From assembly GCF_988243305.1 (NCBI RefSeq), contig NZ_OZ547136.1: 64,000 bases of DNA; one strand, given 5' to 3'. Under the pieces are notes generated by a model. That model did no database searches, was not told the origin of the DNA, and worked only from the letters and a program-made list of their open reading frames with translations. The translations under genes were made by a program, and so were the position numbers. This document shows, piece by piece, positions 5,353-6,859 of the stretch (within the stretch, counting starts at the first letter, position 1; the number at the start of each line of letters is the position of its first letter).

Positions 5353-5459
5353 TATTCATTCTTCCAGATTCCTTTCGGCAGAGCCTTATACTGAAATATA
5401 CCTGGCTCAGGATATTGTTGAAAATATTATATGTTTGTCAAAAATAAAAGTTCTGTTAA

Positions 5460-5816
5460 GTGTTGATTGAGTGTTTGTTATACGGTCTAATGGTTTTTTC
5501 AGCATTAAATATTTATCATTCATATGGTGTGGGTAGAGTGAATATTGATGAGGCGTCGGGGTGTTTCATCCTTAGGCAGCGTATTGATATAGTCAATGCA
5601 GAACGAGCAAAGGCCTTCAGCCGTTTGACAGTTTTGTTCTGTACTCCTGATCGTCTTTCGGGAAGAGACGTTATTATTCTGAATAGTGATGCTATACAGA
5701 GGGTTTGCGATGAGTTCATGGTGGCTAATTCAGAATTATTTGCTCTTGTTCAGGAGTACAACAGAATAGCCAGGACCTGTGGTATGGATGAACTTCGGAT
5801 TACTCATCTGGGGTAG
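5460..5816 (+). CDS. Hypothetical cargo protein, no recognisable domain
   Basis: AT-rich ORF directly downstream of the phage tRNAs; start uncertain (GTG at 5460 or ATG at 5490). Confidence 0.35.
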   Translation: MLIECLLYGLMVFSALNIYHSYGVGRVNIDEASGCFILRQRIDIVNAERAKAFSRLTVLFCTPDRLSGRDVIILNSDAIQRVCDEFMVANSELFALVQEYNRIARTCGMDELRITHLG

Positions 5817-6207
5817 ATACATATCTGGATTATCACCGGTTACGGTAAAAAGTGATTGCTTACTGTTTTTGTGAATGGCATTGCAGCAGCCGGATAATGT
5901 CAGTGCTGGCTGACGGTGTGCTGGTGGCGGGTGTGGTGGTTGCTGCTTTCCCGTTGCTGAAAAAGAAAACGCCAGACTGTTAGCCGGGTATCAGTTAGCG
6001 GGAGAAATTTTTAAATACTTCACAATTCAGGCGGTTGACTGTTGTCTGGTTTGCGGGGAGTTTGTTAAAAGAAACTGGCATGGTGAATCCCCCTGTGCGG
6101 AGGGGCAATCAGCGAGTAGGTATATGGGATAATCGCGGATTCAGGTGCTGGTACTGAATTCACCGGGAGGCACCCGGCACCATGCAATGGCACATAGCGC
6201 CACTCTC

Positions 6208-6237
6208 CAGCCCCTCTCCGGAGGGGCTGTTTATATT
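6208..6237 (+). terminator. Rho-independent terminator-like hairpin in the cargo region
   Basis: CAGCCCCTC-TCCG-GAGGGGCTG stem followed by TTTATATT. Confidence 0.5.
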
Positions 6238-6263
6238 GATTTTGTCAGATGTGAGTAAACTCC

Positions 6264-6599
6264 TTATGGACTTTGTTGTTTTAGCCCATAAGGACATATT
6301 TGCAGAGTGCAACGGTTATTAAAGCATTCATTCAATACGTTATCTGTATTTGTAGGGCATTCCTGGCTGTTTTTGATTAAATTCCAGAATGTTTTATTGA
6401 ATGGTACTACGTTGTAAATGGTTACAGGCAGCACTTTGTTATTGAGCATGATGCCTGTGTGAGTCAGTGTAAATATACTTTCAGGAGGTAAGAAAGCATC
6501 CGATTGATACCAGATTATTAATTTTATTTTACTCCATATGACTGAAAAAGATATTCCGCATGATGGCTGGATAACTGTATCAATCACAATCCACTTCAT
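6264..6599 (-). CDS. Hypothetical cargo protein, no recognisable domain
   Basis: 111-aa AT-rich ORF divergent from the esterase gene; AT-rich promoter-like spacer 6600-6840. Confidence 0.35.
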
Positions 6600-6859
6600 T
6601 TAGTTTCCTTGTTTATGCCTTGCTGGTGATGTTCTGAAAAGTATAAATGATATTTTTGATTGTAAACCATAGAGCAGAATTATTTTTCTGATGTTGTTTA
6701 TTGTTTATTTAAATGCAGGGTGGTTTATATCTCGTCTTGTAGTTTATCCATGCATATCTGCTTGATGATGAGGTTTTTAATTAAGGTATGGTTTTGTGTT
6801 TTTTCTGTATTACATGTCAGGTATTTTAAAGAATCATTTTTCAGATGGTGGAAAGAACC

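Follow-up and report, generated by a model that had tools for sequence, protein, structure and literature searches.

iraL, an STnc100-family small RNA gene and two small genes in a lambdoid prophage region at the position of the Shiga toxin genes

The segment analyzed here covers positions 5353-6845 (1,493 bases) of a 64,000-nucleotide stretch of contig NZ_OZ547136.1 (NCBI RefSeq assembly GCF_988243305.1); this whole stretch is referred to as the window. The surrounding region of the window is the late-regulatory region of a lambdoid prophage. It is very likely that the segment, with the roles proposed below for its parts, is an accessory ("moron") region of mosaic structure in a lambdoid prophage resembling Shiga toxin (Stx) phages, in which four intact and separate elements lie among conserved transfer RNA (tRNA) genes, a gene for the small RNA (sRNA) STnc100 and a carbohydrate esterase gene. 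A preliminary description of the same DNA had reported two open reading frames (ORFs) without known function, one of 118 amino acids (aa) on the plus strand and one of 111 aa on the minus strand, in the place where Stx phages carry the stx genes, and had proposed that both are cargo controlled by the antiterminator Q. Both ORFs were found in the analysis. The inventory of two ORFs was incomplete, and a 43-aa DUF3927 gene at 5852-5983 had been missed. The features of the segment are as follows (PGAP, Prokaryotic Genome Annotation Pipeline; UTR, untranslated region).

5538..5816, plus strand: 92-codon gene with a GTG start, the core of the 118-aa ORF (PHROG 2873; kept in three E. coli clades)
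5852..5983, plus strand: gene for a 43-aa DUF3927 (TciB-like) small hydrophobic protein (Pfam PF13064, PHROG 1470, PGAP)
6049..6238, plus strand: STnc100-family sRNA gene, PasD-related (Rfam RF02076)
6264..6599, minus strand: iraL, encoding an RssB anti-adaptor of the IraM family, 111 aa (100% identical to CFT073 WP_000871291.1)
6600..6666, minus strand: iraL 5' UTR and promoter (transcript start 6632(-); -10-like TATACT/ATACTT at 6645-6639; -35-like TTTACA at 6666-6661)

Arrangement of the segment and its two slots

The gene order across the region is Q (2605-3426), a DNA methyltransferase (4001-5050), tRNAs (5100-5352), the cargo, the esterase (6860-8713), and then the holin and lysozyme genes, which confirms the order given in the preliminary description. 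The AT-richness noted there was also confirmed, with a GC content of 0.33-0.39 at 5250-5700 and 6300-6900, either side of the segment center, versus about 0.52 in the flanks. The DNA of the segment is 100% identical to prophage DNA of E. coli O104:H4 and many other strains. All genome counts in this analysis refer to a survey set of 5,426 complete E. coli genomes, and at least 80% of the 1,493 bases were covered in 862 of these. Because of this identity and coverage, the match of the features to other prophages can be regarded as far beyond chance.

The blastn comparison of the window with Stx phages and their stx-less relatives identified only three shared parts: the end of the methylase gene with the tRNAs (to 5360), STnc100 (6011-6228) and the 5' end of the esterase gene (from 6859). 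The match to the stx-less phage phi296 stops at 5360, and similarity to Stx phages resumes at 6859-6860, with the 5' ends of their esterase genes. Slot 1, at 5361-6010, contains the 92-codon gene and the DUF3927 gene, and stxAB occupies the same place in Stx phages. Slot 2, at 6232-6858 between STnc100 and the esterase gene, contains iraL and its promoter. By this alignment, what the window has in common with Shigella phage 75/02 Stx and with phi296 is limited to the tRNAs, STnc100 and the 5' end of the esterase gene, so 5361-6010 is the stx-equivalent slot, in agreement with the position first proposed. In phage 75/02 Stx, stx1AB ends at 4393, STnc100 is found at 4472-4670 and the esterase gene starts at 4870; in phi296 the tRNA trio is followed directly by STnc100 and NanS. 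No stxA or stxB ORFs were detected in 5353-6048, and none are present in the PGAP annotation of the identical locus, so that the earlier statement that the slot lacks stx genes was correct.

The locus is similar to the stxAB locus of Stx phages such as 75/02 Stx in that Q lies to the left and STnc100, the esterase and the holin and lysozyme genes lie to the right. It differs in that stx is replaced in the slot by the 92-codon and DUF3927 genes, that a second insertion (iraL) is located to the right of STnc100, and that the middle tRNA is degenerate. A tRNA trio immediately before the slot was observed in stx-less phi296 and not in 75/02. The backbone order of Q, (methylase), tRNA trio, slot, STnc100, esterase and holin is present in the window, with the caveat of the degenerate middle tRNA.

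The window also matches phage vB_EcoS-640R1 at 96.7% identity from 6020 onward (blastn). This phage contains two copies of STnc100 (3561-3754 and 4030-4218) in tandem orientation with a small ORF between them, and iraL follows the second copy. This arrangement suggests that STnc100 may act as a homology or recombination linker for the exchange of modules.

iraL and the STnc100 small RNA

The minus-strand ORF, previously listed as unknown, is iraL as judged by complete identity (111 of 111 residues) with WP_000871291.1, which is encoded in the potB prophage of CFT073 and is labelled IraM in RefSeq. Against the IraM model NCBIfam NF007393 it scored 162 bits versus a cutoff of 121, with residues 1-110 aligned to positions 1-113 of the 114-position profile. 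The match to the solved IraM chain 8twd_A covers residues 1-78, and the protein is 62% identical to K-12 IraM over 107 residues. The CFT073 gene, c1429 (PMC12890032), sits on the potB island and was characterized by Hryckowian et al. 2014 (PMC4045071), who reported that iraL matches have at least 95% identity and do not overlap with iraM matches, and that IraL raises the level and half-life of RpoS in log phase in CFT073. The same study described a sigma-70-type promoter for CFT073 iraL and mapped the transcript start by 5' RACE (rapid amplification of cDNA ends). The first 30 nucleotides (nt) of the published 5'-RACE sequence (ACATCACCAGCAAGGCATAAACAAGGAAAC; PMC4045071) have an exact single match in the window, at 6603-6632(-), and the -10-like and -35-like hexamers listed above were assigned by reading the sequence. 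Of the divergent promoter region that had been proposed, only the leftward half is supported, by the iraL promoter; the scan identified no rightward promoter. Together with its promoter, iraL was found in 1,445 of the surveyed genomes.

Because it is encoded against the direction of late transcription, with a sigma-70 promoter of its own, iraL is best described as a conversion gene that is expressed in the lysogen, rather than as Q-dependent cargo. The proposal of Q control consequently fails for iraL, which is encoded on the opposite strand behind a promoter with a mapped start and lies outside the stx slot proper. In the proposed mechanism, iraL would be transcribed leftward from this promoter in the lysogen, IraL would bind RssB's N-terminal domain, RpoS would not be delivered to ClpXP, and RpoS would be kept high even in exponential growth. 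For the present strain, RssB binding and RpoS stabilization are inferred from the identity to CFT073 IraL, for which the function was reported (PMC4045071).

Besides the identical 111-aa protein, the CFT073 locus shares with the window the same promoter region and mapped mRNA start and the same lambdoid neighborhood of tRNAs, DUF3927, STnc100, iraL, DUF1737/esterase and holin. It differs in that the CFT073 esterase is truncated and an IS200 element lies upstream of the tRNAs, whereas in the window the esterase is full length and a methylase gene precedes the tRNAs. K-12 IraM (b1160; structure 8twd) belongs to the same family, NF007393, and also acts on RssB (PMC4045071), but its locus is beside the e14 prophage. 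In addition, IraL binds only RssB's N-terminal domain and is active in log phase, whereas both domains are bound by IraM (PMC4045071). IraM is induced by Mg2+ starvation, according to the IraM structure preprint.

The second known element is the sRNA gene. The match to RF02076 at 6049-6238(+) scored 132.4 bits versus a gathering score of 47 (expectation value, E, 7e-30) and extends over positions 1-206 of the 206-position model. The preliminary description had reported a terminator-like hairpin here. The hairpin is real, with a 9-base-pair (bp) stem at 6208-6229 that contains 7 G-C pairs and is followed by the U-rich tail TTTATATTGATTTTGT in the terminator scan, but it is not free-standing and forms the 3' end of STnc100. 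It is present in both the minimum free energy (MFE) and centroid folds, and by its position it is the predicted intrinsic terminator of STnc100. Homologues of STnc100 are located between stx1B and the esterase gene in 75/02 Stx and between the tRNA trio and NanS in phi296, and were also found in O104:H4, mEp460_ev081 and vB_EcoS-640R1. In two strains of Shiga toxin-producing E. coli (STEC), STnc100 has been reported 75 nt downstream of the stx2 operon, and in two STEC strains its expression was detected by reverse transcription PCR (RT-PCR) in vesicles (PMC12370729). A 2026 preprint relates STnc100 to the sRNAs PasD1 and PasD2 of enteropathogenic E. coli (EPEC), which lie upstream of a sialate esterase gene.

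The window copy resembles STnc100 (RF02076) and EPEC PasD1/PasD2 in its full-length covariance match, its terminal intrinsic terminator and its position upstream of a sialate esterase gene and downstream of the stx slot. Unlike the Stx-phage copies, it is convergent with iraL across a 25-nt gap. It is only 77-86% identical to the Stx-phage copies, and for this reason its seed and targets may differ from theirs. STnc100 would be a structured sRNA of about 190 nt with its own intrinsic terminator, and part of the backbone next to which the stx slot lies in Stx phages.

Several observations weigh against parts of this account of iraL and STnc100. The iraL promoter region from -100 to +33, the stretch used for complementation by the authors of PMC4045071, differs from CFT073 at 3 positions, of which one is directly after the -35-like hexamer and one is at -1, and promoter strength could be different from that in CFT073. 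A sigma-70 promoter for STnc100 was sought by a consensus scan and by reading 6000-6080, and nothing convincing was found. Because its promoter was not located, STnc100 could be processed from a longer transcript. The fold z-score of STnc100 is also only -1.9.

Two further observations concern the vicinity of STnc100. PGAP annotates an "incomplete hypothetical protein" pseudogene at about 6068-6193(-), equivalent to L001 6716-6841, in O104:H4 and in CFT073; since it lies entirely within the STnc100 gene, it is probably a spurious call. In phage 75/02 Stx, a match to the AgvB (anti-GcvB) sRNA was found at 4666-4725(-), in the interval from stx1B to the esterase gene; it is on the opposite strand and overlaps the 3' end of STnc100 by 5 nt. 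No AgvB or AsxR anti-sRNA was detected next to STnc100 in the window at E values up to 1, and iraL is located where 75/02 has AgvB.

The two genes of the stx-equivalent slot

The 118-aa ORF has no known function, as was reported at first, but its conserved part is shorter. In three E. coli clades, which are about 60-65% identical at the amino acid level, the frame is open for exactly 92 codons with a GTG at the position of window 5538 and without insertions or deletions. The 26-residue N-terminal extension of the 118-aa model was rejected: it is out of frame in contigs L012 and L013, is displaced by an insertion sequence (IS) in L008 and has no counterpart in distant relatives. Judged by this comparison, the 118-aa model is too long and the conserved gene consists of 92 codons at 5538-5816. 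The encoded protein is acidic (isoelectric point 5.3) with a mass of 10.5 kDa. The profile of PHROG 2873, a family without assigned function, matched the 118-aa model with 235 bits (E 1.7e-70), residues 11-118 aligning to positions 1-108 of 108. The gene was found in 1,311 of the surveyed E. coli genomes and in 1 of 50,697 phage genome records, that of mEp460_ev081.

It might be argued that this ORF is not a gene and that it is a chance open frame in conserved noncoding DNA, which is the implicit treatment in RefSeq. The gene is almost never annotated there, and in the complete E. coli genomes sampled from the clade of the window no coding sequence (CDS) is annotated under the match. The Shine-Dalgarno sequence is weak in the window itself, and the few differences within clades are nonsynonymous as often as synonymous. 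The protein had no match in Pfam, searched with the single sequence and with a 9-member alignment, and none in NCBIfam or among the PADLOC defense models. With the structural model, Foldseek searches of PDB and BFVD returned only generic helical hairpins at E above 0.1, and a search of AFDB50 returned only uncharacterized family members. These points all count against a functional gene. On the other side, pairwise comparison between the clades gave a synonymous divergence (dS) of about 1 and a ratio of nonsynonymous to synonymous divergence (dN/dS) of 0.24-0.30, around 0.27, as under purifying selection, and changes at third codon positions are about twice as frequent as those at first or second positions. 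The same ratio appears in the antisense frame that shares the wobble positions, but that frame contains a stop in the second clade (L012 and L013). For this reason the 67-aa minus-strand ORF at 5516-5719 was rejected as the source of the codon-position signal. PGAP does annotate the same 279-nt CDS, as WP_001017777.1, in strain LCP30S3_I5, with AGGAG as the Shine-Dalgarno sequence of the start, and relatives also have a Shine-Dalgarno sequence ahead of this start. Among 1.84 billion representatives, a profile search identified 22 proteins, none of them annotated, which included full-length relatives of 91-106 aa at 22-41% identity in other genomic contexts. For one relative at 39% identity the gene order agrees with that of the window: Q, 95-aa homologue, TerB-like gene, DUF3927 and holin. 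The AFDB50 structure matches were uncharacterized family members in E. coli and Citrobacter braakii, with weaker matches of lower identity in Salmonella, Enterobacter and Xenorhabdus. In view of this evidence it is unlikely that the frame is open by chance, and the 92-codon ORF is, on these comparative grounds, a real gene without known function.

The AlphaFold2 model of the protein, built from a 6-sequence alignment, is a confident helical hairpin (predicted local distance difference test score, pLDDT, 85) with helices at residues 3-35 and 50-81 and a conserved (T/S/P)PD(R/K) motif in the loop between them; this confidence likewise counts against a chance frame. The uncharacterized 91-95-aa prophage proteins of Enterobacteriaceae and PHROG 2873 resemble it in their full-length match, equal length and loop motif between helices; no member of PHROG 2873 with a known function is available for a mechanistic comparison. 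An IraP-like anti-adaptor was considered as an identity for the protein and rejected (hhalign probability 0.06%). We suggest with low confidence that the product may be a small cytoplasmic modulator that binds protein. It is a doubtful, though conceivable, extension of this suggestion that the protein would be a new prophage-encoded modulator of a host protein or regulator, serving as a factor for lysogenic conversion or host takeover in the Q-to-lysis slot along with stx, iraL and AraC-type regulators.

The homologue of the second E. coli clade (L012 3969-5062; L008, L009, L010, L011 and L013) was observed just downstream of a gene for a 241-aa AraC-family (HTH_18) regulator in the same Q-to-lysis region. 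On several of these contigs an IS3-family element is present between the AraC-family gene and the homologue.

The other gene of the slot encodes the 43-aa DUF3927 protein. It matched PF13064 with an E value of 1.4e-26, residues 2-43 aligning to positions 7-53 of the 53-position model, and it belongs to the TciB-like PHROG 1470. PGAP annotates it as "DUF3927 family protein" in O104:H4 and CFT073. With a grand average of hydropathy (GRAVY) of 0.90, the product of this gene in the stx-equivalent slot is predicted to be a membrane protein.

Late transcription, flanking features and significance

The features that flank the segment, and those to which late transcription was assigned, are listed below.

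3432-3459, plus strand: pR'-like promoter directly after Q (TTGATT, 16 nt, TGgTAAATT; extended -10)
3509-3524 plus T7, plus strand: tR'-like terminator (CCCGCCACCTGGCGGG; terminator scan)
5100..5172, plus strand: phage tRNA with a CAT anticodon (ARAGORN tRNA-Met; Rfam tRNA 72.5 bits)
5276..5352, plus strand: tRNA-Arg (TCT) (ARAGORN; Rfam 68 bits), the last backbone element before the stx-equivalent slot
6860..8713, plus strand: SASA-family (NanS-p-like) carbohydrate esterase, 617 aa, with DUF1737 at the N terminus (annotated by PGAP in the identical O104:H4 locus)

The putative promoter at 3432-3459 is, by analogy, pR'-like and would be the origin of late transcription through the slot; it is presumably the counterpart of lambda pR', which we take it to resemble. 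Together with the tR'-like terminator it would yield a short leader RNA of about 60-70 nt. Another hairpin resembling a terminator was observed at 3837-3854. The 92-codon and DUF3927 genes are co-oriented with late transcription, whereas iraL has a promoter of its own and lies on the other strand, and by orientation only the former two could be expressed by Q-dependent read-through. They would be expressed in this way from pR', possibly also from a local promoter. Q-modified transcription would cross the tRNAs, the two small genes, and STnc100 with its terminator, and would continue into the esterase and lysis genes, running antisense over iraL.

The tRNA at 5100-5172, with which the backbone flank to the left of the slot begins its tRNA series, was called tRNA-Met by ARAGORN, versus tRNA-Ile by PGAP in the homologous loci of O104:H4 and CFT073. 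The middle tRNA of the phage trio, at 5183-5262 of the window, is annotated as tRNA-Arg in O104:H4, CFT073 and phi296. In the window and in mEp460_ev081 its region from the D-arm to the variable region is rewritten, neither ARAGORN nor Rfam gave a call, and it is probably a pseudo-tRNA. The esterase gene forms the right backbone flank. Between the esterase stop and the holin gene lies a gap of 147 nt, in which a strong 12-bp hairpin at 8796-8824 is followed by a U-run, with a fold z-score of -2.0. This gap is the place of the PasA/PasC sRNAs ("esterase-PasA-holin") according to a 2026 preprint, and an Rfam search of it (window 8714-8835) matched no family. Further Rfam matches elsewhere in the window were a sok antitoxin RNA at 396-571 with a hok-type ORF nearby, IS009 at 36557-36755, a trp operon leader at 46870-46963 (-) and STnc180 at 60903-61105. 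The trp operon leader match suggests that core chromosome, not prophage, may make up the 3' part of the window.

Two other explanations of the segment were considered. Under the one advanced at the outset, the slot would hold novel, uncharacterized virulence or fitness cargo under Q antitermination, as stx is. The position is truly equivalent to that of stx, and two genes without known function, the 92-codon and DUF3927 genes, do lie there in the direction of late transcription. But iraL, the cargo gene that is largest and has the best support, is a known gene, is antisense to late transcription and has a mapped promoter of its own; the hairpin belongs to a known sRNA; and the region occurs commonly and carries some RefSeq annotation already. 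This explanation is therefore largely refuted for iraL and STnc100, and for the segment as a whole we regard it as quite unlikely. An origin of the ORFs as decayed remnants of known genes, in a prophage that is breaking down, would agree with the degenerate middle tRNA, with the pseudogene fragment that PGAP places at about 6068-6193(-) in the identical locus, and with the truncation of the adjacent esterase in CFT073. Nevertheless, iraL, the DUF3927 gene and the 92-codon gene are all full length in their matches to family profiles, which already refutes this explanation for the three genes; the "pseudogene" is located within STnc100 and is more plausibly a spurious call; and the esterase of the window is full length. 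Decay is thus highly improbable, and the reading as a mosaic accessory region with intact elements is preferred.

The cargo of this region was for the most part known already: iraL, whose role in fitness is the clearest among these genes, was characterized in 2014 (PMC4045071), and STnc100 is a curated Rfam family that has been reported near stx2 (PMC12370729). The main value of the analysis is a correction, in that the apparent mystery cargo in the Shiga toxin position consists of the gene for an RpoS-stabilizing anti-adaptor and the STnc100 sRNA. The sole uncharacterized item is a widespread but unannotated family of 92-aa proteins. The Q-to-lysis region of these prophages contains two insertion slots that flank STnc100, and the cargo of the slots appears to be aimed repeatedly at host stress regulation, with IraL in the window and an AraC-family regulator gene in its relatives.

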